A stretch of 62,770 bases of DNA, filler included, from Bipalium vagum (taxonomy: Eukaryota): NCBI GenBank assembly GCA_037834085.1. It is 3 parts of 3 records of this genome, joined end to end, with 100 filler letters (N's around TTAATTAATTAA, not from the genome) between each part and the next. Parts side by side here need not be neighbours in the genome. Positions count along the whole stretch, not along the records: positions 47,180 to 62,770 come from JBBMKC010157782.1; 2 more parts are not named here. One strand, written 5' to 3'. Each line of letters starts with the position of its first letter. The first letter of the stretch is position 1. This document shows positions 1 to 62,770 of the stretch, one piece after another. The notes beneath the pieces are model-generated. The model ran no database searches. It was not told the DNA's origin and saw only the letters and a list, made by a program, of their open reading frames with translations. The translations under genes and the position numbers were made by a program.

Positions 1-244
1 CTCGCCCGTTTTGTGAAATCAATGTTTTTTGAATAAATATGTTCATGTCAATTTATTCTTCAAAATTTAATATTTTCCATTTTCAAAAAAATTAAATATT
101 ATTATATTATTATATTATAATATTATATTAAAACAAAATGAGTTTTCTAAACCTATAAATAGTGAGAATTAATCATGCCAAATTTTATTGAAATATAAAT
201 ATATTTTCGGCTTCATTCTAAGGACTTATCAGCCCAACCATGTA
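1..244. mobile_element. End of a mariner-derived (irritans/Himar1-like TIR) element or MITE
   Basis: Ends ...AGGACTTATCAGCCCAACCATG+TA; the reverse complement resembles the Himar1-type ITR (GGTTGGCTGATAAGTCC). 79-244 is nearly the reverse complement of 62626-62770. Confidence 0.7.
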
Positions 245-670
245 TTATTATCACTGAATCCCCCATTTCTCTTCACAATCAACCCTTGCTGACATTATAC
301 TGGAACCAAACATATAATTTAACTAGATCCCAAAACATTTATATATTTTGATAATTAGCCAAAGCTATGTGAAGTTGATATATAATTTTTATTTGAACTT
401 CATATATATATATTATTAATTTCTGACAGCTCATTCCATATGTTAACAAATTATGACAATAAAACAATGGTTTTTTACAAGTTAATGCATTTTATATTAT
501 ATACTCATAAATAAAGTAACCGTAACTATCATAATTATAATAAATAAAAGTAAGTAACGTAAATAATTAACATCAAGTAATTATTTAAAATGATAAATAA
601 AGTAATTTTATTTGATATAAATGTATTTTTATTAATGTTAAACATTGTTATTGTTAGTTGAAAATTAATC

Positions 671-23174: not shown

Positions 23175-23274
23175 NNNNNNNNNNNNNNNNNNNNNNNNNN
23201 NNNNNNNNNNNNNNNNNNTTAATTAATTAANNNNNNNNNNNNNNNNNNNNNNNNNNNNNNNNNNNNNNNNNNNN
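23175..23274. other. Artificial scaffold spacer 44N-TTAATTAATTAA-44N
   Basis: Exactly 100 nt, with a palindromic 12-mer giving stops in all six frames; identical to 47080-47179. Confidence 0.95.
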
Positions 23275-24537
23275 TAAACAAAAAAAAGAGTTTCATGCAC
23301 AGAGGTTCGAATCAAGTTAAATCAATAAGTTATTTATGATCTGAGGGCAAATGTTAGTCTGTGCTGATCTGTGCCTGGAAATCTGTTCCTGGGAGTCTCC
23401 ACAGATATAATTGATATTTTCTTCCATATTCACAGTGGTTGGAGAATCAGTGTATGGTGCATCGACAATGTTGGTTTTACATCCTTTGAAATCAGGTTTC
23501 CAATTTTTAGTGGCCTACCTTTTTCATGTGATCGAAAATTTACTCTTTTTTGTACAAATAATTGATTATTGAGCGCTGCTTAAATTTTGTATTTTTGAAA
23601 TAACACCAAACAAGTCAGTTTAAACAATCACTATAAATAGAAAATTCAATAAATCAATTTGTAATATTTAATATTGACATTTGAGATATTCCATTTAAAA
23701 ATAGCACATTAAATATACTGTCATATTGCTGCTCACTTTGAAGCTAAAATATTTTCATCTAGCCTAGTCGTTCTTAATAATACTAATAATATATAAACTT
23801 ATTGTGACATGCAAATTAATGATAATTATTATTATTATTTTAACCACAATAACCATAAAATCAATAATAATATAGCCGTAAACATGAACAGTTGTGACTT
23901 ACTTCAAATTAATAATTTATAAATAGTTAAATAAATTTTCGAGTATAAATAATTATCGAACAATTATTTAATTTTGTTAATTAATGATCTTTTGATTGGT
24001 GCAAATTATTTAAAATCATTACTTATTAATTAATATTTTTATAATTAAAAAAAACTTTCATGTGGCATAAAATAAATCAGTGAAAATATTTTTTTAATTA
24101 AAAAGGCGAAATAATTAAATTTTATTTGATTTATATAATTTTTTTAATTTATCAGTGAACAGTCGAAAGCAATTCTGAAGACATTGTTAATTTTAATGAT
24201 GTCTCGAATATTGATCCGCTTTCGTCTGGAAGCGTCTCAACATCCATTGTTAGGGAAAAGATTATTAGGATGTATATCTATGAATGATTTTATAGGGAAA
24301 TTAATTCTCTAGAAGCTTTTGGATTAAGGAACGTTTTCGTTGGGATTATCAATTTTATTTTTTGGGGAACAGGGGTTTTTTGAGATTATTTTGCCGATAG
24401 AACTGCTAAAAATAGCACGAGGAAATCATTGGAAAGGCTTCGGTTTCTTTATGTGTCTTTAAAGTCGTTTTTTTTTCAAGACATCTTTTTTGCATTCAAA
24501 TACCTGCTTGCTCCTTGATAGATCTATCCCTGTTAAG

Positions 24538-28412: not shown

Positions 28413-29340
28413 ATTAGGGTTCTCAAATTGAAAGTTCGGTTTTCTCCATAAAATTTTAATTTTTTTAAACAAGTGACAAAACGAATTCAATCGATTATTT
28501 ATTCTCTATTTTATATACAACCTCTTCTCAACAATGTCATTGTTATACCAGGGACTGGGCTTTTCATTAAAGAACTGAGTCGAGGAAGTTTCGATATCAT
28601 GAATTCTGTCAAACTTTTTGCCACGAAGGAAATGTTGTAAAGATCGGAACAAATAGTAATCCGAAGGCGCGATGTCTGGGCTATTTGGAAGCTGGGACAT
28701 TATTTCTCTTTGAAAGGCTTTCAGCTTTTGCTGCGTCACTTTTGCAGTGTATGGCCTACCCTCGTCGTGATGAAAAATTATTTTGTTTCTATTGATCAAA
28801 GAAGGATGTTTTACAAGTAATACATCTCTCAAACGGTCAAGAAGTCCATGTCACAAGTCCATATTGTTCTGACAACATTATATGCAATCCTCACACATCT
28901 CAGCAGTGATGAAACGTGGGACAGAAAGAGATGACAACATACGAACTCAGAGAGCAAACTTTTTTGCGTTGTTTTGCGGGAGCCAATGTTAAGCCTACTT
29001 GCCAGCTCCTTGGTGGTAATCTTTCGTTCGCTGTTCGCATCGTTTCTTTAAATTGTCTTCAAAAATTTTTATAGGACGGCCAGGGAGCTCTTCATAATAA
29101 ACACTTTTTCTACCACGACGAAACTCGACAATCTAATAATAAATAATCTTTTTTGAAGGACATTTATACCCGTGCGTATCGGATAGTTGTCTGTGAATAT
29201 TGGCATTCAATTCTCCGCGCAAGAAGAGAAGTTTGATGACGCTTCTAAATTCGATTGAATCCATCTTTTATTTATTTCACACGCTAATTTACTACAAAAG
29301 AAATGGCAAATAAAACGATTTCCATTTCCATTACCCATAT
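28413..29340 (-). mobile_element. Chimeric, internally deleted mariner
   Basis: 3' half IIFHHDEGRPY...PNSPDIAPSDYYLFRSLQ with TIR TTAGGGTTCTCAAATTGAAAGTTCG; 5' half MDSIEFRSVIKLLFLRG...PGRP of a different type. Confidence 0.85.
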
Positions 29341-30600: not shown

Positions 30601-30753
30601 CAACGCCAAGAGTATTTTCATTATTATAAAATTATTTTCTAGAAAACTGAAATTATTAATTACTTCCTTGCTATAATTTTCTGTTCCAAATTTTGAGAAA
30701 TTATTCTGAAATTTTTAGTAAAATATTATTTATTTTATTAATATTCCTATTAT

Positions 30754-31001
30754 NNNNNNNNNNNNNNNNNNNNNNNNNNNNNNNNNNNNNNNNNNNNNNN
30801 NNNNNNNNNNNNNNNNNNNNNNNNNNNNNNNNNNNNNNNNNNNNNNNNNNNNNNNNNNNNNNNNNNNNNNNNNNNNNNNNNNNNNNNNNNNNNNNNNNNN
30901 NNNNNNNNNNNNNNNNNNNNNNNNNNNNNNNNNNNNNNNNNNNNNNNNNNNNNNNNNNNNNNNNNNNNNNNNNNNNNNNNNNNNNNNNNNNNNNNNNNNN
31001 N
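30754..31001. other. Assembly gap (N run)
   Basis: Continuous Ns with no linker motif. Confidence 0.95.
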
Positions 31002-34382: not shown

Positions 34383-35590
34383 TATTAGGATTTTAAATTT
34401 GAAAGTTCGTATTTTATATAATATTTAATACCATTGTTTTAATATTGTTAATATCGTTCATAATAAGGACAACTTTTAAAATCAAAAGTCGATGTAAAGT
34501 ATGAGAAATAAATAAAAAAAATTGTAAAAAATTTTTAACGTATTTATAAATAAACAAAATTTTCAAAATGACGCTCACATTCGGAATTGTATACTGTACG
34601 AGTTTAAGCGGGGATCAAATGCCACCGTTACCACTAAAAATATTAAAAATCTTTATGGTGAAATTCTTAATATTCGCAAATGCCACAAATGATTCGATCG
34701 GTTTTAGAAATGGCATCTACAATATGTGGTGGATAGTGATGTGAAAAAACCTATGATCGAAACAGATCCTAGAAAAAAAATTGAACAATTGCACGATGTT
34801 AAACTTTAGTATCACACAACCACAAAAAGATACTGACAAAAGCAATAGATGCAGTGTTTGGTTAGCTCTTAATTTAACTTTAGAACAGATAAAAAATCGA
34901 CTCAAGATCTGTTACTCATTATTCATTCGACATTTAAAAAAACTATTCTTCTAAAAGTGGATTGTGATTGAAGATGAAAAGTGAATAATGTATAAGAATC
35001 TACAAAACGATATTCAGTGTTTATCGCCAGCCTAAACTCTTGTACCAGTGGTTAAAGCAGGTATTCATCTAAAGAAAGTCTTATTGAGTGTCTTCTGGGA
35101 TTGAAAAGAAGTAATTCACTTTTAATTATTGGAAATGTGTCACCAATAAATTTCGATGTATACTGTAAAATTTTTTACTTTTTGAGATATGCGTCCATTG
35201 TAAACATTCTTCCTTGATCAACATAAACAATAATATTTCATCACAACTGGAGTAGGCTAAACACTGCAAAAGTAAAGCACCAGAAGCTGATAGCCTTTCA
35301 ATGCTAAATAATGCTTCAGCCTCCAAATAACTTAGGCAATTTGTCCAGATCTTTACAATATTTCCTTTGCTGCAAACAGAATGACAGAATTCATCGTCCT
35401 GTCTCAGTTCTTTAATGAAAAGCTCAGTTCTCGGTATGGCAATGCATTGAAAGTTTGATCAAACATTAGGAAGAGGTTGTAGATAAAAATGGATAATATA
35501 AAGTTGATTGACTTCGTTTTTCGATTTGTTTAAATTAGTGAATTTTAATTTTCTATAAGAACGAACTTTCAATTTGAAAACTCAAATAAT
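34383..35590 (+). mobile_element. Full-length degenerate mariner (both TIRs)
   Basis: TIRs TTAGGATTTTAAATTTGAAAGTTCG / CGAACTTTCAATTTGAAAACTCAAA; HIRNCILYEFKRGSNA, IVIEDEK*IMY. Same TIR and C-terminus family as the 28413 copy. Confidence 0.85.
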
Positions 35591-45189: not shown

Positions 45190-46130
45190 AATTAAAGTAC
45201 TAATGAAAAATAAAAGAAAAATATCTAATTTTTTTAATAAATTTACAATAGGAAAATATCCAGGAGAATTATATTTAAAATCTTTAAACCCTTTTATAAA
45301 ATAATTGCTGCGCACTAATTTACCGGACCAAGAACAAATATTAATAAACATTTAGAAAATTATGAACAAATTTTAGAAAATAAATATTCTTCGAATTCCA
45401 AAATCTAATTCCATTTCAATAAACAGAATTGATAAACTTGTAATGAAACATGGTGTAAAATATATTTCAAAAGATTTACAAGATAGATATGCTTCAGATG
45501 TTGAAATGATACATGAAATGAACAATATTCAAAAACCAACATCAAAAGAGAAACTAGAAAGAATAATAATAAAATTAATTATGATAGGATAACTTTTATT
45601 TGGTCAAAGTTTAACAAGAACTGCTAAAAATATTGCAAAAGAAAAACTATTTGAAGGCAAAGAAGAATTACAATTAGAAAATAAAAAACAATTAGCAAAT
45701 GAATTTCATAAAGAGTTTAGAAAACTTAAGCAATTTTTAAAAGTAAAAGTAAATAATATAGATGATATGTGGTCAGGAGTCTTAACATTTGTACTAAGTG
45801 AAAGGAAACATGAAATAACTTGAACATTAATTGATTTAAATACAAGATATGCTTTTGTTATTCCTTTTAAAAACAAAACTTGAAAATCTATAACGGATGC
45901 TTTTTCATACAATATTTGAAGACTACCAAAGGACAATTAAAAAACTTTGGGTTTATAAAGATATTGAATTTTATAATAAAACATTTGAGGATCTTTGTGA
46001 TGATAATGAAATAGAAATTTATGCAACAGAGAATGAAGAGAAAGATGTTGTAATAGAAAGATTTAATAAAACTTTGAAGAATATGATGTTTAAAAAATTT
46101 AAGGAGCCAGGTAACACAAAATTTTTTCTT
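45190..46130 (+). mobile_element. Polinton/adintovirus remnant: PLA2X domain plus retroviral-like integrase
   Basis: INRIDKLVMKHGVKY...LQDRYASDVEM...KPTSKEKLER (parvo-type PLA2 pattern), then EFHKEFRK...IDDMW, IDLNTRYAFVIPFKNK, EFYNKTF, YATENEEKDVVIERFNKTLKNMMFKKF. Confidence 0.85.
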
Positions 46131-46169
46131 TTTCAAATAGAAATTCATGTTACATTGAAGGGTTCTTAA

Positions 46170-46950
46170 CTATTCACTCATAAAATTATGAATTTGGTAA
46201 TTGACACCCTATATCAATAGTTATAATCCTAATTCATTATTTTTGAGAATTATATTGATATTAATATCTGTTCTTTAAAACACACAATTATTTTGTAAAT
46301 CTAACTGCACCATTAAATTTTTCATTAATAATTTCGAATAAATTATTTAATAAAAATCAAAAGAGAGTTTCCAAAATAAACTGAAATTCTTTTAAAGAAA
46401 AAATACGGTTTTTTCAACCTTTACGGAATGTTTGGGATCATACTATCTCCATCTCATCTAGAAAATACACTAATTCCTGGTTCAGCAATAAATAGGAAAT
46501 ATAAACTTCTCAATGCAATATTCTTTCCATATTTATGACTTAAATGAGAGAACTTAATCAATCTCAATGTTAAAAGGTAAACATTCCAATTTTGCTTTAT
46601 TTTCAAATTAACGGAATATGTCCAATCATGGTGAGTTTGACATCAACAATTTTTTTCAAATTATTTTGCGTTAAGTAAACTAAGATGCTATGGAAACTTT
46701 GATGAGGAAAATGGTACAAGATCATCGTATCACATTGGACAGATAAATCCCTTTTTTCAACTTATTTTATGTTTTCAATAAATTTCAGTACTCAAACAAC
46801 CATGATTTTAGTCCACATTTTGATATGTCCAAATATCTCAGTTCACATTTAAATTTTTCTTTACTAAAACCAACTATACCCTTTGAAGACCATATACTTC
46901 TTGAGAATTTACAAGTTTTTCTCTTATTAGACACTGTGGTATTCTCACAT
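46170..46950 (-). mobile_element. Highly decayed Tc1-like element
   Basis: DPKHS(V)K motif near 46440 resembling QDNDPKHTSK; little else legible. Confidence 0.3.
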
Positions 46951-47025: not shown

Positions 47026-47079
47026 TGTAGCAACGTGTGCTCGTCGGCCTTTGACTCCTCACTTTGTGTACTCGTTGTG
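47026..47079. repeat. LTR-like terminus cut by the scaffold end
   Basis: TGTAGCAACG...GACTCCTCACTTT...TCGTTGTG aligns with 51571-51625. Confidence 0.55.
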
Positions 47080-47179
47080 NNNNNNNNNNNNNNNNNNNNN
47101 NNNNNNNNNNNNNNNNNNNNNNNTTAATTAATTAANNNNNNNNNNNNNNNNNNNNNNNNNNNNNNNNNNNNNNNNNNNN
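47080..47179. other. Artificial scaffold spacer 44N-TTAATTAATTAA-44N
   Basis: Identical structure to 23175-23274. Confidence 0.95.
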
Positions 47180-50074
47180 TATTTAATTATTTAAATTATT
47201 ATTCAATTATTAGTAATTTCATCTTAATCGGTCAGGATTGTTTACAAACGAATACAAAATACACATATATATTAGATTTAACACATACACATACGAAATT
47301 AGTTTTTCATGCACAATGATCAGAAAAGTTTTAGTTAAAAAATCAAAATGAAAGTTATAAATCGATATTGGCTGATCCACTTGGCTTCGGGTCGATATTG
47401 GCTGATCCTGATGATTTTGGTTTTGCCACAGTATTTGGACGCAGTCTAAATTATATAATTTATAATTTCTATAATTTTTCTAAAATTATAAAAAATAATA
47501 AAAATAATTACTTAAAATAAAAAAATGATATTAAATTTAAATTAAATAGTCTCAATAAAAATATTTATAGAATATTTAAATTACTAAAAATATAAAAAAT
47601 AAAAAATTTAGTATAAATATAAAACATTTATACAAACGAAGGACGACAACAATAAAGAGGAGAATTTAGTCAGAAATATAATTAGAAAAGTCAGAATAAT
47701 CTGGTATCAAATTTCCAGCATTGTCAAAAGAGATCATATTGGTATCAAATAAAAAATTAATTTGAATACGGAACTATCAGATCTGACAGATCGCCTAGAG
47801 TTACCAGAAGATCCAATATATAAAGTAGCAACAATGCAACCAACAAAAAGGAAAACCAAAAATAAAAAGTTAGTAAATCAATAATTAAATTAAATAACCA
47901 GTCGAGATAGACGGATAGATCCCCGAATACTTTCGAAGCATCAAATAAATTTTTCTTTTTTGTTCCTCCAATATTTATTTTCTTTGCCTTTTCAACGTCA
48001 AGTAGGGCGGAGAAGCGCTTTTTACTTTTGAGGGCTATTGAGGCTAGATTTAGCGAAGAGCATAAACATTATTCTGATCACTCTCCGGGATTTATTAGCA
48101 AACTATTATTTGTTCAACAAAGTATTTAAAGTTTTTAATCGATATTTAAATAAAGTTTTTAAATTTATATAAAAGATTGTTTTATTGTGTCTTAGTGATT
48201 AAATTTTTATTAGTTGAAAGTCACATTTACGTTTTGATTCATATTATTTCGCACGCAAATTACAGTTACCCAGTCGATTTTCAAGAAATAACATATACAA
48301 TCGCAACCTTTCATATATACCGAGCGTGACACTCTCTAAATCCCTCTGATCAAATTTGAAATAAACGAGCCGCCATAAGTTTTGGAGAAATCTCGAGAAT
48401 CCAAGTTAATTAAAACTTAATAAATCCAAACCTCCAAGAACTTAACAGACGGATTGATCCTGGAAAAGGGTAGATTGTCCCTTATTTAGTTTCTTTTGGT
48501 ATTGTTGAAATTCCTTTGATATATGTTCCATCGTTACTGATCTTCCTGGGGAAATGGTTTCGACTGCTATTATAAACATATACCTAAAGTCGTATTCAAT
48601 CAATATTCACCATGACATAAACTAATGCTATTCAGATCGTCTGCCAATCGGTTCAACTAATGAGTGAGCTTCTATGTCTGCTCTGCTTAGAATTTAGAAC
48701 ATTTTATATTCGTGCACGAACGTAAATTTTTTTGTTCTCTGTGACTTTGAATTGGAAAATATGAACTGATCAACGAGGTTTATGTGAGTAGATTGATATG
48801 GTTGTCCGTGAGTACAGTAGATTGCATTTTGCTTCAAGGAGAGCATTGCTCTGTATACTTGTGAGCTTCTAGTACCAATGTTCTTTGTTTTAAAGTTACT
48901 CAACCCATGAATTTACCTTGCTCAAAAATCTCAAAGTAATGATATTTTTTTGGATGCCTCATAATGTAAATTTGAGTCTTATTTAACTAAACTGAAGTGA
49001 TGATTGAAATCACTATTTTTGTTTGATTTAATCACAACAATTACTGATCATATAATGAGTGATTTAAAAAATCAATCAATCAGGTTTATTCAATTGATAA
49101 CTGCTTAATTGAGAAAGTTTACCCGAAAAGGGTATAATTGTGAATAGCAGATAAGCTGTCAGTGAGAAAGTTTTAACATTGATTAATGGATAGTCCATAA
49201 TAAACGCGGTGACAAAGTAGTGAGAGCAGAAATGCAGTGGTTTACTGAAATTGTCAAAAGTAAACAAATATTCAATTCCAATTAAAATCTCGACTATTTC
49301 GTTTCTTCCTAATTTCTGAGATCGGGAAGTTGTGAATCTCTGAAATCATTGAGACGTTTTACCATTTGACATTTAATTCCTTTTGTTTGTTTTCATTGAT
49401 GGTTTATTGATTTTCATTTTATTATAAATCAATTATATATCGACTTTATTTTTCTATAAATATTCGTTTAAAAAAATATATATGATGAAGGAAAATGGCT
49501 TTTTATACTTTTTATAACTGATATTTTGGCGTTATGATAACGTTGTTCACAATATTCTATCAAAATTTTCCATTTATTATTTACTCTTCCTGTTAACTGT
49601 GTTTTTCTACTCTCTTATTTTGGATTTCACAAATAATCCATAAATTCGAGAATCGTCAAAAAGGTGATTATCGCGACACATACCAGACAAACTTTAAAAG
49701 TATATTTTGCTTAAATACCCCACCAGAGGGCTATCTCTGAGCAACTGTAAAGACTCAGCTAATAGTCCGGGAAGCCATGGGAGCTAACCTGTAAGATCGT
49801 TAAATTTCTATTTTTTATTATCCTAATTATTTTGTGTGAGTATTTAAGCTGATTTCTAATTTTTAAATATTTTTATATTGTGCATAATTTTAATTTTTAA
49901 TTTTGTAAATTTAATTTTAATATTTATTTTAAAATAATTTTTATTTTTATTTTTAATGGCACAATATATTAATTTATTAAGAGTGGAAAAATTTTTTAAG
50001 TATTGTTGTTTTAAAAAGCCTTTTCAAAAATATATTATTCAAAATGACTGCCTTTGTTGATATCGCAGCTAACA

Positions 50075-50089
50075 TGGCGACCACACCAG
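50075..50089 (+). promoter_or_regulatory. Primer-binding site (tRNA-Arg-like)
   Basis: ..AACA|TGGCGACCACACCAG, complementary to a tRNA 3' end ...CUGGUGUGGUCGCCA. Confidence 0.55.
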
Positions 50090-51570
50090 AGAATTCTTAG
50101 CCGAATCACTCATGCCTGACTTATTTCGAAGATATAAGTGAGAGAAACAGAGGAAAGGAATATAGAAGAAATAATGGATTTCAGAGAAATATGAACTAGA
50201 TATCAGAAGAAACGGTGGAGGCATTTTCAACATTAGAAGACAGAGAAAGACTGTATGGAAATGGAGAAAGACAAGCACTCGTATTACGAACACCTAAAAC
50301 GGTAGCTAACCCTAACTTTAAAATTTCTGCAGAAAGCACGAAAAACGAAAATGAATATCAAAGGAAACCTAATGATGATTTGTGAAATAGGAGCATTTAG
50401 AGGAGACAGCAGTAGGAATAGAAACATGGAGATGAAGCAAAATGAGACTAATGAGCAAATCGTAAAGAAATTGTTTAATTGTCAGAAGGCAGGGCATTTA
50501 ACAAACCAATATCGAGCAAGGGACTCAGAATTTGGTCCAGGTCCGGGTAGGGATCAGTGGATGAATACAGATATGTTTTGTAGAAACTGTAATGAAACAG
50601 GTGATTTCGCAAAAGAATAAAATAAAATTTTTTAGGTATTGCAGCAAAAGAAGAGATTTGGTAGAAACTTATTGGGCAAAGAATTCAACTTAAAAGCTAT
50701 GTAAACATCGATGGAAAAGTACAATGCTTTAAATGTAAGCAGTATGGAAATGTGGCGAAATTTTGTCTTAATGAAAAGAGGTCACCAAAAAAGGTTTAAA
50801 GATTGGCATTCGGTAATGCAAAAAATAAACATGGTAAGAGATATGGAAGACTATGAGAAAATAGAAAAATTGAGGTCAGAAAACGGAGAGTTATGGCGGC
50901 AGTTGTCCAGCGTAATTGGTCACGAAACAATATCAATGATCCAATCACAGGAAAATGAAATTAAGATATTAATTAGAAACGATTCACTGGAAGAAAAAAT
51001 ATATGTTAAGTGGAACGTAATAATGGGATTAGTGGTATTGGATCAAGAAGAATATAATAAACTTCCAGAGGTATTAGAACGGGAATTCGCAAGGAGCCCA
51101 AGAAAAAATGATAGAATTATAGATTTGTTAAGTTAGGTAGCGGAGCTAGCAGTAACTCCAATAATGCTTGGAAGAGTAATCAAAGTAATAAAACCATACA
51201 TAAGAGAGCTTGGTGTTCACCAGGTTGAGCTTAAGATCCGTGATCCGTATTTACGGAAGATATATAAGATTAAGAGGAATCGGTCAGTGACCAATAAAAA
51301 TCAAATTAAAACTCAAATGGAAGAAATGTCAAAACCGGAAAAACTAAGACCACCGCAAGCAAGACCCAGAAGTAATCCAGTTGGAAGACCAAGGAAGGAT
51401 TCAAATACAAAGTCCTCAGGAATTAACAGAGAAACTAAAGAATTTTACGAAGAGAATTTTTACGGAAAATTAGCCGATCGTTACAGGAAACAGCCTGAGG
51501 AAAAAGCTTATGATGAGAGAGAGTGTCCTGGGTGGTTACATATTTGGATTATGTTGCTATTTTACCTAGA

Positions 51571-52463
51571 CGTGGTAACGCGTGGTCGTGTGCTCGTGAC
51601 TCCTCACTTTTCTAAATCGTTGTGTTCGTAACTTCTTTCAGTATTTTCGAATTTAAAACACCCACCACTATACTGTATCCGCACCCGTAAGAACTAATTC
51701 AAAATAAAACTTTATTTGCTCTAACACAACAATTACAATTTCTAATTCAAGTCAAATTCAAACCAAAACTTTATCAAGAGTAAAATAAAATCAAATTCAA
51801 TGATTACGTTAATGCTAAAATCGAATCAATAATTGATAATAATAATTTAATAACAAAATCGAGAATGAAACAAAAATTAATAAATCGGTCTCACCAAGAG
51901 TGACAAGGGGTTCCCGGGTCACCCTCTAGGCCCTTCTCAGGTCGCTTAGAGGTTCCCAAGCCCGCTGGGTCTCCTTGTAGAAATCCGGCTGCATCATTAA
52001 AAAAAAAATCTGTCTACATAGGAAATTACCAAGATCGTCCTCGGCCGGTACCCCGGTCTCGTCTTCTTCGGAAGTAATCTGGTTAGCGCTGTGGTTTAAA
52101 ATCTTCTTCGAGTAGTCTTCGTCGCAAATAACCATTTTCTCTTGTTTTGTTAAATTATGGAGGCTCTGCCACTAACGGGAATAGCCGTCTCCTTTTATAG
52201 TCGTAGAGCTTGGTCTACGATCACCAATCTCTACGCTTTGAGACGGCTATTTTCTCTAATAGCAACTCACTTCCTGTCAGGAAATCCATTAGCCTGATCT
52301 CATGAAAAATCCCCTCGGCGGAATTTTGCCATTGAGAAAAATTTTACTAAAAATTTTTTTAAAATCTTATTATTATTATTATTAATTAAAAATTATTATT
52401 ATTATTATTCAAAGATTATTATTATTATTATTCTTCAAAAATTATTATTATTATTATTCAAAA

Positions 52464-52496
<33 letters not shown>

Positions 52497-52540
52497 TAAA
52501 AATTCCTATGATTATTATTATTATTGTTATCATGTTTCAA
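51571..52540 (-). mobile_element. Nested solo-LTR-like insertion
   Basis: Abrupt change in composition; imperfect inverted termini (GTGGTAAC..GTTATCAT); minus-strand TATAAAA near 52195 and AATAAA near 51714; homologous terminus at 47026; no clear TSD. Confidence 0.55.
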
Positions 52541-52542
52541 AA

Positions 52543-53368
52543 CCCAACATTTATATGGTACAACTACGAGAGTTTGAGGGAGTATTCAACGTAATCACAG
52601 GGAAAATGTTATCACATTCCTTTTCTAACTTCAAGGATAACAGAAAAAGAAGAAAAGGAGAAAACGCCTATTGTCTTATGATCACAGATAAAAATGAAGG
52701 GATAAGATTTGTTAGAAGAAAAAGAATCCTAAAATATAATACAGAAGTTTACTCCTCAAACCATAAGGTGATATTTATCACCTATCATGAAACAGTCGGA
52801 GAAAAAAGGGTGAGTAAAACGGATGTGTAACTAGCGGATTATACAAATACAAAATATAATTTTGTATATCACATGTTACAACAGGCCATGAGGGAAATGT
52901 ATCATGAGGTTGTAGGGAATGACTGAGGTCTAAATCGGGAGTTGTTATGAACTCGATTTGCTACCCAGCTCGGTGTTTTTACCAGAATGATGGGAGAGGT
53001 GATCTACAGCTACAAGTGTGCAATAGTAAACGTGCAACTGAGGAGAACGGATGAATGCACCAATGACCTATGAGTGATATGGGAAAATGAAGAAGATTGT
53101 GTATTATGAGTCACACAAATCTAGTTAGAAAAAGAAGCAAAACCAAAAAATATTGGAATGTTGAGCAGCAATGTCATCCATATACAAAATAACTCATGAT
53201 ATATGGATCACCCTTTTCGATCGTAAAGAAACAAGCAAGGTGGAGTATTTAGAATTTTTGAAAATCGAGAGTGGACTAAATTTTGAGATTTTGGTTTCAG
53301 GGGGAATATATACAACTCAGGATATTGAGAAAGCTAGAAGGAATATGATGTTCCCAGAAAGAATGTAA
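52543..53368 (+). pseudogene. Chuvirus/herpes-gB-like (class III) envelope glycoprotein remnant
   Basis: YTNTKYNFVYHMLQQAMREMY, GVFTRMMGEVIYSYKCAIVNVQLRRTDECTNDL*V and LVSGGIYTTQDIEKARRNMMFPE follow the order of remembered chuvirus G motifs (YVNSKF.YVE, GEV.Y...C..V.V..R...CY..LPV, LA.SGIY...D...R..IMFP.E). Confidence 0.75.
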
Positions 53369-53389
53369 AGAAAAAAAAAGAATGAAAAA

Positions 53390-53930
53390 ACAAAAAGATG
53401 TTCTTTAGCTAGAAACTATACGACAAGCATCAAAATAAACTGCTGCACCTTTTCGAATCAGGGACACATTAGCAGCCGTTAGCGATGATTCCCAAAGGGG
53501 CATTCGGTGCAAAGAAGAAGAGTGGAAATTCATGAAGAAAGACTTTACTGATGTGAGGATTCTGATGAGGTGGGATTATTAAAAAATGCAATTCACCTTG
53601 GAACACACCGTTGATTTGCGTATGGAAGAAGAAGAAGAAAGATATCGGAATAAGTCTATATTTTTGGTAGTTAAATGCAGTCACGGAATGTAGATGAGAT
53701 GTTGGATGCTTTAAGTAGGCAAAGTATTTCAGTTCCATTGATTCAGGTAATGCCTAATATCAAGTGGAATTAGAGGAGTCATCAAAGATAAAGAAGGGTA
53801 TTTCTACCAAGGAAGTACAGTACTGTTTTAAAAGGATGCTCTTTGGAATAGCGGCAGCCAGGGAACCTTTCTGGAGATAATGTCGACAGTCATCGGTTGT
53901 ATAAAAGGAGCAATGGTCCAATACGTTATT
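53390..53930 (+). pseudogene. Ty3/Gypsy reverse transcriptase N-terminal fragment
   Basis: GIIKKCNSPWNTPLICVWKK, LNAVT, DEMLDAL, AKYFSSID, YCFKRMLFGIAAA; stops before YxDD. Confidence 0.85.
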
Positions 53931-56900
53931 GACAATGAATAATTAGATATAATGAAAGAGTCAGTAAAATTATGAGCTATGCATTACCAAGTACCCATGG
54001 TAGTATCGATAGTTGTTCTCTGAGTTTTTATTAAATATGTTACGAACTTAAGAGGCTGATCCCATAGTAACGTCTTTGTAGGCTAGTTATGCTAAGGTTT
54101 GTACATACAATTATTTTATTTACATTTTCTCAGAGGGCGATGGTAGGATAAAAATACTTGTAAAGAGGTCTGTTAGAGTTAGAATAACAAGAGAAGAGCA
54201 AAAATCTTAAAATAAATAATATTTAAAAATTAAAAAAAAAGAGTCAGTAAAACAAAAATTAAAGCCACATCGGAAGTACATGTCAACCGATACAATATAT
54301 GCAAAAGAAATTATAAGAGAAAAAAGATGTTAAATGTTTCTCAATGAGATCATAAGAAATAATGAGTTGTTCGAGAAGATCCACAACAGGATAAGAGAAC
54401 TACATATACAACACCAATTGACCGTAGAGGGCGCAACAGATTTTACTAATTTCATAAAATTATGCATGTCATTATTTTCAAATGTATTCATATTTTTAAT
54501 AAAACTTAGCTTAATTCATTGATAGTAATTGTATTTAATTTAATGCGTTGTTTAAATAATATTTAAACATTTAGCGGAAATTTAAAATGACTCTAAATGT
54601 CAAAATATAAAAAGTTAGCTATTTATGTTTATTCAGTCATCCTATTTTTTTACTTGGTGCTCGCAATTTGTGTCCTGAATACTTTTGTCAATTTTGCTAG
54701 AAATACTTGTCAACCTGTAAAGCGTTTTGAACCATTTTATTACTGGGTAAGGATTTTTTAGTTATTCAGATAATTCTTTTGAGTAACAAAGCATAACTAC
54801 ATATCTTTTACTGACTCTTTTACCTTTTAATTAATACATCTTTTCAGACGCTGAGGACAAATTTTTCTCACGTTCCTGATTTTAAAAACTATCGATTGTT
54901 CTATTACAACTGGTAATTGCTTTTTAAACTTTTACCATTATTTTACCATATTATTATTTATATCAATTATCATCATTATTTTTATAATTAATATTATTTT
55001 TTTAATTTAAAAAACAGTAAAATTAATAAAAAGTTTTTAAAATATTAATTATATTACATTTTAATTTTTATTAAATCAATATTTAGTTAATTATGTTCAC
55101 TTGATTTAAATCAATAAATTTTAAAATAAATAAGAAATTAAAAATGCAGGTTGGATTTGTGATTTTTGTTGAAATTTTCGATTTTTGATAGAAAAAATGG
55201 GAAATAAATAAAAGCAAACTTTGAACTCCAAATTGATTTTTTATAATTTTAAAACATTTTTTAACTTTGAGTTTAAAATGAAAAAATTATTGACATTTTA
55301 AATATTTATTGAATGATTCTGAAAGATTTTTTATTATTAAAATTTTTTTCCATTTTTATACTTTGCACTAATTAACTGTCGATAGAGAAATAATAACAAT
55401 TACAGATTATAATTTTCTTTACTTTTTTCCTCAATTATTGGATGTGTATTTAATATTCAATTTTATCATTTAAATAAAAGCGTTCACTGACAGTAGTGAA
55501 ACAAATCATAACGCGCTATTTTCAATCAGCATTGACCTAAGAAAGATTAGTCTCAATCGATTTTTTATTAAATTTCTATCGATTATTTTTCAAACGTTTC
55601 TGTTTTTCCACATTTTTATGTAATCTATGAATGAAAATCACTAAATAATTTTTAAAATATATCAAATATTAAAAAACTAATCGATTAATCAAATTAAATC
55701 GATATTTAAAATAATAAACTCATTAAAATAAGTCAATTACCCTATTCTTTTTTATTTATCTTTTCGCAACTAAGTTCTTTGAGCTTCGTTGAATATTCAT
55801 TTTATACTTTTGTTGTATTCATTTTTTAATATTTATTTATTTTCTTATTTTTTTAAAAAAAAACTGTTTGTTAAATTTTTATGATGAATTTTTTGGTCTA
55901 AAATTGGCATATTAAAGATCAAGAAAATCATATAATAATTAACCAATTAGAAAAACATATCTTTTAAATAATTAAAATATGTGTATATTCTTTCATATGC
56001 ATTTTCAGATAACTATACGCGGTCTTCCAAAAAGTTTCTGGGTAGAAATGTTTAAAATATTCAAAAAACATTATCTACAAAATACATTTTAATTACACTA
56101 AAATTTATTCAATAAAGTAAAATCTATCATTCTCAAAACACTTTGGAAGCAAAAAACTGATTAGAAGCTTCTTCAACTTCAAAAAGATAACTTTTGTGCC
56201 TAATAATCGCAATCCTACCAAGGTTCACAATGTCATCCAATCGAATGTTTCTTTGGCATCCTAAAATCTCTTGTATACAAAAAAACTGACCACTTAATAA
56301 AAAGAATACGACTTTGCTTGAAAAAATAGACACTAAGTACGTACAAGTAGCTTGCACAGGTATAAGGACAAATTTGAGACATATAGCCGAAACTGGTCTA
56401 AACTCTGTTGTACATTAATGGAAATACATTGTTATTATGGCAAATATAATTTTATTTAAAAAATTACTGTTTGTTACTTCGATAAAAATTAAATTGGTCC
56501 TTCTTTGTCGACTCCTACATAACCAGATAAATTAAAAATGAAATGTACCTTTGATTTAATTGACACTAATCATTATCATCAACTGCTAACATTGGCAACC
56601 TGTTGTTAGTAATGATAACATTTATTCTTCCAAAGGAAATATAAAATATTCTATTTCAAAATAATTATTTTCTATAATTCATTGATTTCTTATTGACGTG
56701 TGATATACAGTGATGAAAAAAAAAGTATTCGTACGCTTCACTTTTTAAGCTGAAGCGTGTTTTTATTATCTGAATATTTTTGGTTTTCACATAAATCAAT
56801 AGAGAAGCAACACGAAATCGGTGAGAAACACAAACCTTTTATTTATTTCAAATTTTTAGCTTTTGAAAACAAAAACTTTGTATATTGTCTACTCTTATTA

Positions 56901-57875
56901 ATTATGGACCGTAGTCTTCTAACCATCGATACCACTAACTGTTTTGAAATTTCAAATGTTATTTTCGACTAAGATTTCACCAAACCCTCAATTCGTTATT
57001 TTCGGAGGAAAGTTTTTTGCCGAATATTTCTCTCTAAATGCAAACACCACTTTTCTATACGGTTAATATCTGCTGATTGTATCGGAGTAAGGATTATTTT
57101 TCTTGACTTATATAGAAAAGATTCTTTGATCATTTTAGCACTATACTTATATCCTGCTAGAATAAGTAAGTCTTTTCAATGTCTAATTATTATTTTTATT
57201 TGTAAAACAAATGTGATGTACACAAATGTCATAAATTGTATGAAACATGTACAGTGTCATGGCTATAGTCAACCAACGTGGATTTTTTGTCATTTTTATC
57301 ATCGGCAAACGTATTATATCAATGGAATGGGAGATAAATTCATGGTGACTTTTTTTCCTGATCTCTTCTCATTTGCAATGGATACAATTTGAAAATGATT
57401 TTATTCAATATTGAACTGTAGAATGAGATTGTTTCAGTCTTTTCTAATATTGCGAAAGCTAATTTTGTTTTTATAGAACGGCACTATTAACTGTTTGGTT
57501 ATTCTGAATAACATTTTAAATCTGGTGATTATAATTAAGCAAAATAGATGATTAAAACAAATCCTATTTTGGTCAATTAAATATTTTCTTTATTATTTTA
57601 AATCAGAAGGGCGAATTTTTCTATGAATTCAAATCGTATTTTTTTCTATTGACTTACTCAAAAAGTTAACAAATTTTGATAATTAAAACCTGTTTAAGCT
57701 TAAAATGTGACGTTTATGAATACTTTTTTCATCAAGTCTGTCCATAAAATTATTTTTATTTTATACTTTTTTGTACTTTCTGTTATTTAAGTAAAATAGT
57801 TACACGAGTAATTTTATTTAGGATTTTCAGGGGCACTGGGAAAAGGTAAGATAGATATATAAAAATAGATATGAC

Positions 57876-59023
57876 ATGATTATTATTTCACGAGGGAATT
57901 TTAGGCGTGCTGGTGTTCCTGTGCTTTTCATCCATGGAAATGCCGGGGACTTCAACCAAGTAGAGCACATGGCGAATGTTGCTCAGAGTATGTGGAAATC
58001 TCATTATGGCCATTTATCAAATGAAACTGCTGATGATCGTCAACTGGACTTCTTCGTGATCGATTTCAATCGGGAGCAAAGCGGTCTAAGTGACGAAATC
58101 GTCTCGAAACAAACTCGATACGCTCGACATTGCGCGGAATACATTTCAACGCTGTACAGCCAAGAAACTACCATTGTTCTCGTCGGCAATTCCATGGGAG
58201 GAATGATTGTGCGGTCGATCTTTGTCCAATCGGAACAGGACTTGGTCCAATTCATGAGAAAATCGATAATTATCATTTTGACAATTGCCAGTCCGCATCT
58301 GTTGCCAGTACTGGCTTTGGAAAGGGAACTTTATAGAAGATATCAATCAGTCAATTCATTCTGGACTCGGGAATGGAGGAGCAAGTTGCGCAACATTTCG
58401 TTGATATCACTGATGGGCGACGACGGGGACCTGTTGGTGTGGGATGGGTTTGGTGATGTGATGTTTCTGGAACCTGAAAGAGAACTTGAGGGAAAAAAGA
58501 GAAAGGAGGGAAGACAGTCTCGACTTCTTTGGTTGACAACATCGTCTTTTGTCGTTCATCGATTGTTCTCGGCAAATCACGCCGACGTCATGCAATGCAA
58601 AGATTTGGTCGTTTTTATTTGTCGGGCCTTGCTTGGGGTCATCAACGATCGCAGAATCACGTCTTCGGAAATGGTCGTTGGAAAAATGAAGTATGTTTTC
58701 TTCCATAAACAATCAATACCGTGGACGAAGACGGCGAAATTGTGTGGTAAAAGAAAAAAATCGACGAGTCTCACCAACGCCACCACCTTTACCATTGGCA
58801 ACAATAGTAGAATTGTAAAGAGAACGACGACGACGACGAAGTCGACGATTATTGTCAAAGGCAGCTCTGTGAAGGAGATTGTGGAAAACCGTTTTCCAGA
58901 TCCCGTTGAGCGGAATTACAAAATTGGGCCCGTCGATCTGTCCGGTGAAAGTCAGATGTTCTTCATTTCCCTCCGAGGTGGTCGCCCTTGTCGATTGGAT
59001 TTGTTTGTCAGTCCGGAAAATGG
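57876..59023 (+). CDS. PGAP1: GPI inositol-deacylase (PGAP1/Bst1-like), catalytic exon
   Basis: GVPVLFIHGNAG, LDFFVIDFN, IVLVGNSMGG (nucleophile elbow), TIASPH, GDLLV, SANH..MQCKDL; donor gtaggt. True 5' boundary uncertain (57876, 57895 or 57905). Confidence 0.9.
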
Positions 59024-59303
59024 GTAGGTTTCCTTCGGTGAACACTGGAGTTGATCTTGAACCTTTATTTATTAATGGATAAAAATATTTTTTGATTTTA
59101 TTGAATTATAAACGTTTTTATGGTTCTATTAATCAATAAAATAAACTTAATTTGTGGGGTTTAAATCAACAATAAATTTTAAAAAAATGAAGAAATAAAT
59201 AAATAAATAATAATAATAATAATTTTTAAATAAAAACAACAAAAATCGTTAATGAAAAACATATTTTAAAAATTAAATTTTTTAATGACAACATTATACC
59301 CAG

Positions 59304-59980: not shown

Positions 59981-60612
59981 TACAGGGTGACCAGAAAAAA
60001 AGTGATAAATAATTTTATTTTTTTCTAGGCTAAATTTGAATTATGCTCATTTAATTGATGATGAATCTGTAAATAATTTTCAGATTATAATTATTATTAG
60101 TTATCAATGAGTACACAGCAAGAAAAGATTTTTGTCTTACATGAAAAAGGATTTTGCAATTGTGATTTTGCAAAAAGCGTTAGAAGATCCATTAATAAAC
60201 GCTATGAAGATCTTGGAAATTTTGAAAGACGTCTATGAAGAGGTAGAAAGAGAACAGTTGATATCAGTCAAAATCGAAAAATTATCAAAAAGCATCTTTG
60301 TTTTAATTCAAGGACTTCAATGCGGAAGATAGGTGATGAGACATAAATTAAGTGTGAATCTGTCAGACTAATTGCTAAAAATGAGTTTAAATACAAGCCT
60401 TACAGGATTCAAAATGTTTAGTTCCTGACCAAAAGAAAAAAATAAGACTTCAAATGTGATTTAAAGTTGAGCTCCGGGCCGCTGGTCAACAATAGGAGGG
60501 AATACTCTTCATAAGTGAGAGGCCATTCACCGTTGAACAGATAGTCATCAGAACCATAGAATTTGATCTCCAGAAGCTCCCTACAATTCTGCTATATTTG
60601 AACACTGTCAAA
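59981..60612 (+). mobile_element. maT (DD37D-like) element, 3' truncated
   Basis: TA-CAGGGTG terminus; GRKRT, SMRKIG, KPYRIQ, ILFISERPFTVEQ, QNHRI. Confidence 0.75.
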
Positions 60613-60952
60613 ATTCGCTGTCTTTTTGTCAAATGAAGATCTGTCGTAGACCATGTCCGTTATTAATTTCCAGATGTCTTCTACAATGTTTAAATCTGAA
60701 AACTTGGCTGGCCATTTTAAGACATTCACGTGGTTCGCTGTCATGAAATCCATTACAATTTTGGCTTTATGGACTCTGCAATTATCTTCCTGGAAGTAAT
60801 ACGTGCCTCTATAATTTGACCTCATACATGGCACAAGTTTATCTTGAAGCATGGCAATGTAGTACACTGCTTTGAACTTGTTTCTAATTATTCTATAAGC
60901 TAGCAGACCATTTGGGAATGTCATTAGCCATACCACAATACCTCCGCCTTTG
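60613..60952 (-). mobile_element. Tc1 (DD34E) transposase fragment
   Basis: GGGIVVW...FQEDNCRVH...WPAKFSDLNIVEDIW; 34 residues between D and E. Confidence 0.9.
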
Positions 60953-61419
60953 AATGAAAGTTTTTAAGTAAAATGAAGATAAAATAAATAATTAATTTTT
61001 TTATTAAAATTATATTAATTGGTTAAATATAAATAAAATGAAAGCACTTTTCAACAAATTTTGTGAAATAAGTTACATTCAATTTTGACTGATGAGTTCG
61101 AATAATAGCAATAACGTGACAGTGACTAACAACCGCAATAAAATTGTACAATGCCTTTTATTCAAAACCGAAAGACTTCCTAAATTACCTTAAGTGTTTT
61201 CTATTCTTTGTTTCCGATAATATTGTAAGCCAGGTTAATCTTATCAAATGAAGACAGTCTGAAGAAGATAAAACAAAGTAATGTAATAAATAATGATACA
61301 ATTAAAAGTTTACTTATGACTAAAATTTCGAAAATGGTTTACGGTTTCGAATATTTCTTCTTTTAGCTGGTTTCACTAACTAAGAGAGGCTTTTTTTATT
61401 CTTAAAAGATAAATTTCAA

Positions 61420-62480: not shown

Positions 62481-62625
62481 TAAAAAAAAAGATAATTGTC
62501 ACCATGACATTAGGTGTGTATAAGTTAATAAAGACACCACAATTGAAATATGCGTGGTAATAAATTAATTATATATGTTTGTTATTTGAAACTGTCAATA
62601 AATATCAATATTAATTTCAATATAG

Positions 62626-62770
62626 TACATGGTTAGGCTGATAAGTCCTCAGAATGAAGCCGAAAAAATATTTATATTTCAATAAAATTTGGTATGATTA
62701 ATTCTCACTATTTATAGGTCTAGAAAACTCATTTTGTTTTAATATAATAATATTTAATTTTTTTGAAAAT
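62626..62770. mobile_element. End of a mariner-derived element or MITE, same family as 1-244
   Basis: TA-CATGGTTAGGCTGATAAGTCC; near-identical reverse complement of 79-244. Confidence 0.7.

Follow-up and report, generated by a model that had tools for sequence, protein, structure and literature searches.

In this study we characterize a retroelement locus in a 62,770-nt stretch of DNA from Bipalium vagum (GCA_037834085.1). We call the whole stretch the window (27.6% GC, 424 N); all positions count along it, and the locus lies within the part that comes from JBBMKC010157782.1. From left to right the locus carries a possible 5' long terminal repeat (LTR) with a word resembling a primer-binding site (PBS), a decayed gag, an open reading frame (ORF), an interruption, the central part of an envelope (env) fusion glycoprotein and a remnant of a reverse transcriptase (RT) (Table 1). 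The gag knuckles (50465-50766), env (52543-53365) and RT (53563-53880) all lie on the plus strand, in gag-env-pol order. The copy carries stops and frameshifts, has suffered two large deletions and probably contains an insert; it is dead, as a first-pass annotation of this DNA had stated.

Table 1. Features of the retroelement locus, in window coordinates
Feature	Position	Strand	Evidence
Possible 5' LTR, TGTTA...TAACA termini, without partner copy	49591-50074	+	Termini seen directly
PBS-like word, tRNA-Arg(UCG/UCU) type	50075-50086	+	10/12 nt match to tRNA 3' end
Decayed gag: three degenerate CCHC-like knuckles and a doubtful fourth, in different frames	50075-50790	+	Motif ranking
ORF with GRVIKVIKPY and GRPRK motif and a hydrophobic C-terminal stretch	50705-51570	+	Open frame
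Interruption in place of the env N-terminus; probable secondary, solo-LTR-like insert	51573-52532	-	Termini, tiles, purine bias
Chuvirus/HSV-gB-type (class III) fusion glycoprotein remnant, central part only	52543-53365	+	Pfam, phmmer, profile, tblastn, Foldseek
A-rich deletion junction, without env membrane anchor or protease	53366-53562	+	Spacing, protease search
Ty3/gypsy-type RT remnant, N-terminal motifs, with stops and frameshifts	53563-53925	+	tblastn and profile

The env remnant is read in frame 1 of the plus strand from 52543, with seven in-frame stops in 226 codons; the frame shifts once, somewhere around 53140-53220, and the last ~50 codons stand in another frame. With the seven stops written as X, the translation of 52543-53220 matched the Pfam family PF24664 (Monjiviricetes_fusion) at 54.9 bits (cut-off 27; E=5.1e-15). 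A phmmer search of 1.84 billion representatives returned 41 relatives at E<=0.001, 16 of them at E<=1e-10, with a best identity of 35%. When 10 relatives were combined into a profile, it matched 52528-53154 at an independent E-value (iE) of 3.6e-36 and 53141-53365 at 7.2e-14; reversed window translations used as a control reached 1.3 at best. The remnant spans positions 226-530 of the 671 in this profile and lacks the N-terminal ~200 residues as well as the membrane anchor; cysteine is kept at two of five conserved cysteine columns. Two other searches returned no relatives: a word-indexed homolog search found nothing among 155 candidates, a weak negative, and a PDB sequence search gave three unrelated rows only (E>=0.36). 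The glycoprotein that the first-pass annotation had placed from 52543 onward is borne out by these matches.

The predicted fold points the same way. An AlphaFold model built from a 31-sequence alignment reached a predicted local distance difference test score (pLDDT) of 76 and reflects the family as much as the window copy. Foldseek against BFVD, a library of viral proteins only, gave 10 matches at E<=0.001, nine of them named viral glycoproteins and one unnamed, and the best was a chu-like virus G protein (E=2.4e-6), in line with the earlier proposal of a chuvirus-like fusogen. The likeness to herpes glycoprotein B (gB) in PDB was weak: there was no match at E<=0.001, and all 37 listed rows were herpes gB, GP64 or thogotovirus glycoprotein, which are class III fusogens (best E=0.048).

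The relatives place this glycoprotein in a retroelement context. A Pfam domain scan covered 25 of the 41 phmmer relatives and found PF24664 in 24, the remaining one being a spurious S-layer protein. An aspartic protease follows env in the same chain in nine of the 25; four of these also carry RT and ribonuclease H (RNase H), and three also integrase. BEL/Pao markers, for which we take Peptidase_A17 and DUF1759-type domains, were found by Pfam in none of the 25 scanned relatives and in none of the window frames. In intact relatives env stands in frame ahead of protease, RT, RNase H and integrase (PR-RT-RH-IN). Relative P0010 has zinc knuckles ahead of env, followed by linker, env and PR, and P0011 has Ty3 Gag-Pol as its best PDB match (E=5e-119). 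Envelopes borne on polyproteins match the window remnant at E 1e-23 to 1e-9, four stand-alone G proteins of ~650-690 aa at only 5e-5 to 6e-4. In two trees, one of 20 rows and a second of 15 (without P0007, P0008, P0019, P0024 and P0040), a 100/100 branch separates the window env and the polyprotein envelopes from the four stand-alone G proteins. Accessory regions vary among relatives P0003, P0004, P0010, P0011 and P0013: we noted a weak Bcl-2 match ahead of env in P0004 (E=0.00096), several protease-like repeats in P0010 and P0013, and, by eye, long hydrophobic extensions past integrase in P0011 and P0013.

Downstream of env, all four RT-bearing relatives matched 53572-53877 by tblastn (E 1e-6 to 8e-6), and a profile of these four, P0011 among them, matched 53563-53880 at iE 3.8e-12 (reversed-translation control 2.4), with a weak continuation in a third frame that extends to about 53925. 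Each of the four polyproteins matches the window env as well as the window RT, in the order of its own chain. A Gypsy RT fragment after env, as first annotated, is therefore recovered, and together with the PF24664 match it upholds the earlier call of a Ty3/Gypsy-type element with a chuvirus/gB-like class III fusogen. A Pfam scan by itself gave no RT match in any of three frames, and a PDB sequence search with the remnant listed 12 retroviral RT rows at E 0.38-1.1, none of them significant. A PR-RT-RH-IN profile found no protease, RNase H or integrase in the element. The spacing between env and RT is 71 codons in the window versus 462-785 aa in three relatives, and the membrane anchor and protease have therefore been deleted. 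A tandem A-rich unit lies at 53358-53398, and the element ends without its 3' part.

At the 5' end, position 49591 begins TGTTAAC and 50074 ends GCTAACA, with TGGCGACCAC directly after. The first-pass annotation had read an LTR followed by a PBS here. The termini stand, as does a 10/12 match to the tRNA-Arg(UCG/UCU) 3' end as given in supplement 1 of PMC13524379; there is no second LTR in the window, and the PBS-like word overlaps an ATG and may be chance ATG context. The junction word CA+TGGCGACC occurs only once in the window, counting both strands. We regard the LTR and PBS as plausible only. Weak similarity of the LTR-like segment to 51880-52000(-) and 54030-54160(-) was not above background tiles. 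A DIRS-like arrangement, suggested by inverted similarity between 49591-49830 and 54030-54200, was rejected as no better than background tiles; its scores against mononucleotide shuffles were largely due to AT-rich sequence.

Four gag knuckles had also been annotated, and three hold up better than the fourth. The sites at 50719, 50465 and 50573 rank first, second and third of 125,440 six-frame positions and the fourth (50625) ranks 24th, with the four C/C/H/C ligands complete in none of them. The region around the last knuckle can be aligned with gag of relative P0023 (tblastn E=0.009; above all 200 shuffles), and a capsid profile of three relatives found no match in the element.

The ORF that follows gag has one stop in 288 codons, versus 30 and 23 in the other two frames, and is far less interrupted than the env and RT remnants beside it. 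Its GRVIKVIKPY segment had been taken for the C-terminal end of a Gypsy integrase, a claim that was not confirmed: the segment has no GP[YF] core, reaches only 0.1 bit with a GPY/F profile (built from two relatives, segments having been found in two of three tried) and is not matched by the PR-RT-RH-IN profile. The ORF is probably an accessory or linker region and not integrase. Its hydrophobicity peaks in a 13-mer that begins at 51542, in the region that holds the env leader in the relatives; an env-leader profile from the relatives found no match in the element. Neither domain libraries nor homolog searches gave the ORF a family. NCBIfam had no match, and Pfam returned only KwaB at E=0.003, below cut-off. 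A word-indexed search found nothing among 1606 candidates, a weak negative, and an Atlas search with a 98-aa part gave a best value of 0.79, which is not significant. A single-sequence model reached pLDDT 44. A likeness to a helical segment of P0010, noticed by eye, was discarded as not significant (z=1.3). BCL2, ubiquitin-like, MATH and BIR domains had no Pfam match in the ORF at E<=0.1, and Bcl-2-like and ubiquitin-like two-sequence profiles from relatives had none in the element (iE>=2.3); accessory domains of these types could have been deleted from the window copy.

Between the ORF and env lies the interruption of ~960 nt, which the first-pass annotation had also seen. It has an imperfect terminal inverted repeat, lacks a target-site duplication and contains an (ATT)n array at 52367-52530; the purine bias of 58-66% common to the coding parts of the element is lost in it. 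Over 53 nt, its left end and 47027-47079 share 74% identity, a match that ranked first among 1242 tiles. The relative at 47026-47079 (plus strand) runs into a gap and is possibly another copy of the same LTR-like repeat. We infer that the interruption would be a secondary LTR-like insert with an adjoining deletion. A TATA plus initiator (Inr) pattern within it was set aside and is not counted as evidence, because the window contains it three times and its definition was post hoc.

Taken together, the locus is likely to be one copy, heavily decayed and with internal deletions, of a Ty3/gypsy LTR retroelement of GAG-ENV-POL type, its envelope a fusogen of class III like those of chuviruses and herpes simplex virus (HSV gB), in a Burro-like layout. 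The data fit the order gag, ORF (accessory or linker), env, pol, in which the RT falls after env as expected, and a profile search found no pol domain ahead of env. The order would also fit an env in frame within one gag-env-pol polyprotein; the continuity of the frame itself has been destroyed by the insert and the deletions.

Several results weigh against this reading. The interruption breaks the continuity from gag and ORF to env, blastn located no partner for the LTR-like segment anywhere else in the window, and the ORF carries a lighter stop load than env (1/288 versus 7/226, Fisher p=0.024), which could mean two elements. Comparison of the ORF with the N-terminal regions of 10 relatives gave none with z>3.5, and profiles were negative as well. 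Among the rows examined in supplement 1 of PMC13524379, a PBS of the Arg(UCG/UCU) type goes with an F-type env in 10 of 10. A VIA-align comparison of the env model gave no Z>=5, and gB (Z 3.6) scored below an unrelated coiled coil (3.8). The window env sits on a long branch and an approximately unbiased (AU) test does not reject its grouping with the four stand-alone G proteins (p=0.30); the env tree therefore agrees with a polyprotein-borne envelope and does not prove it. Finally, the choice of Gypsy over BEL is one-sided: it draws on the RT match to a profile of the four RT-bearing relatives, on the domains of the relatives and on motif differences.

Some of these points would suit a patchwork, in which an LTR-gag-ORF block and an env-RT block from two Gypsy elements were joined by nested insertion, by recombination at the interrupting LTR-like piece or by misassembly. 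The unequal decay of ORF and env is the best support for such a junction, and the absence of a target-site duplication around the interruption, the ORF without a match to the relatives, the PBS type and the gappy assembly would all go along with it. Yet both blocks share strand and purine bias, their order is that of intact relatives such as P0010, and the hydrophobic end of the ORF falls where relatives have the env leader. We therefore consider a patchwork unlikely, and the link between env and RT would stand even then.

Two further explanations are very improbable. The layout implied by the first-pass annotation, gag and a pol ending in GRVIKVIKPY ahead of env, followed by the RT fragment of a separate Gypsy copy, could appeal to the superficial likeness of RVIKVI to a GPY/F segment and to gB-type elements of GAG-POL-ENV order, which are described in PMC13524379; it is already largely refuted by the missing GP[YF] core, by the lack of any PR, RT, RH or IN signal between gag and env, and by nearest env relatives that have env before pol. 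The other explanation is that Gypsy debris simply surrounds a captured chuvirus glycoprotein, as a non-retroviral endogenous viral element, or an env of BEL/Pao (Anakin) type. In its favour, the best structural matches are chu-like virus G proteins (in a library that holds viral proteins only), the AU test leaves room for it, and such elements beside Gypsy fragments are reported in PMC10084718, against which stand the closer match of polyprotein-borne envelopes and the absence of BEL/Pao domains from the scanned relatives.

If the locus is a single GAG-ENV-POL copy, its ancestor might have encoded one long polyprotein, running from gag through an accessory or linker region and an internal signal sequence to env, membrane anchor, PR, RT, RH and IN, which would have been cut by signal peptidase and by the element's own protease. 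Gag would have packaged the RNA of the element, and a trimeric gB-like env could have fused particles with neighbouring cells and allowed spread from cell to cell; we found no infection assay for such elements in the literature consulted. After insertion the copy would have lost the N-terminus of env, where a probable reverse-strand LTR-like insert now lies, and also the env anchor, the protease and everything past the early RT. It has accumulated stops and frameshifts and cannot yield any product of the original kind.

Elsewhere in the window, a 390-aa open frame at 57855-59027 (+) in a 45% GC island encodes PGAP1, a glycosylphosphatidylinositol (GPI) inositol-deacylase (Pfam E=5e-41); a word-indexed search found no relative of it among 1091 candidates, a weak negative that we read as strong divergence. 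Decayed integrase-core-like frames at 45500-46170 (+), which may be Polinton/Ginger-like, gave a weak match to the pol profile (iE 0.17). There is a Tc1-type DDE_3 fragment at 60595-60963 (-; Pfam E=1e-9), and a fragment at 28506-28850 (-), presumably mariner-like, has no Pfam match and includes one of two inverted arms (28599-28782 / 35229-35394), its partner being 6.5 kb away. Judged by the PGAP1 exon and the Tc1-type fragment, the genome is most likely an AT-rich invertebrate one; an Atlas search bearing on the host lineage returned generic eukaryote clusters only. An inverted repeat pair of 132 nt, 95% complementary, lies at the two ends of the window (117-248 / 62622-62753) and is probably a dispersed repeat. 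The segment 670-741 (-) is tRNA-like by Rfam (36.8 bits) and not by ARAGORN, possibly a pseudogene or the head of a short interspersed element. N-run gaps lie at about 23175-23276, 30750-31000 and 47080-47179, at least one with TTAATTAATTAA filler inside, an artefact that produces false repeats.

The combination of a Gypsy pol with a gB/chuvirus-type fusogen in gag-env-pol order was shown in 2019 for Burro (PMC6431247) and surveyed in 2026 (PMC13524379). Arkhipova and Yushenova (2019) describe planarian Burro elements with env in frame between gag and pol and matches to mononegavirus glycoproteins, with 2-3 CCHC knuckles and accessory domains, and in Dugesia japonica they note Burro fragments in decay, interrupted by stops and frameshifts (PMC6431247). 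According to the survey of Chary and Hayashi (eLife 2026), which counts 1512 env-bearing elements across animals, HSV/gB-type env is about as common as F-type on Ty3/gypsy elements; GAG-ENV-POL errantiviruses with HSV/gB-type env occur there in Nematoda, Bryozoa and Platyhelminthes, and 114 arthropod gypsy elements carry chuvirus-like glycoproteins (PMC13524379). Gypsy fragments beside chuvirus-type glycoproteins are also reported by Dezordi (2023; PMC10084718). The novelty that the first-pass annotation had implied for a gB/chuvirus env on a Gypsy element is thus gone, the gag-env-pol order included (PMC6431247, PMC13524379, PMC10084718).

The window copy shares with the GAG-ENV-POL HSV/gB errantiviruses the Gypsy-type RT, the gB/chuvirus-like env and its place between gag and pol; those described are intact and mostly multi-copy, whereas ours is a fragment without a sequence-level clade assignment (PMC13524379). 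Burro/GYPSM1, giant Gypsy elements of dugesiid planarians, likewise have knuckles, an accessory region and env between gag and pol, at 25-30 kb versus 4.3 kb for our remnant (PMC6431247). The surviving ORF of the window differs in showing no BCL2, ubiquitin-like, MATH or BIR domain, and because these accessory domains were not found we say that the locus works like Burro and do not file it as Burro. Anakin, a mosquito BEL/Pao element with a chuvirus glycoprotein (Dezordi 2020), and Tas, with its glycoprotein downstream of the polyprotein, also join a chuvirus/gB-type fusogen to an LTR retroelement, but theirs is a BEL/Pao pol, whereas the window has a Gypsy-type RT downstream of env (PMC7642597). 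Their order, env after pol, is not what we found: RT follows env, and no integrase precedes it. Troyka, described as lacking an envelope and having CG termini (PMC12440569), was considered and rejected.

In conclusion, the locus is a real, decayed member of a published kind, the GAG-ENV-POL gB-type Gypsy elements. Since this layout was already on record for flatworms, roundworms and moss animals, the locus is genuine without being new, and the published picture would gain only from a new host phylum or a new accessory domain. It seems rather doubtful to us that the host stands outside Nematoda, Bryozoa and Platyhelminthes, so that the layout would extend to a new animal group, and that the ORF is an undescribed accessory domain, kept open perhaps by later host use. 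With no relative recovered for its PGAP1, the host may belong to a poorly sampled lineage. Whether gB alone mediates the cell entry of such elements is a question of the field beyond the reach of a dead copy. The locus shows that an envelope-bearing Gypsy lineage was once present in this genome, and the remnant can be used as a probe for natural, better-preserved copies.

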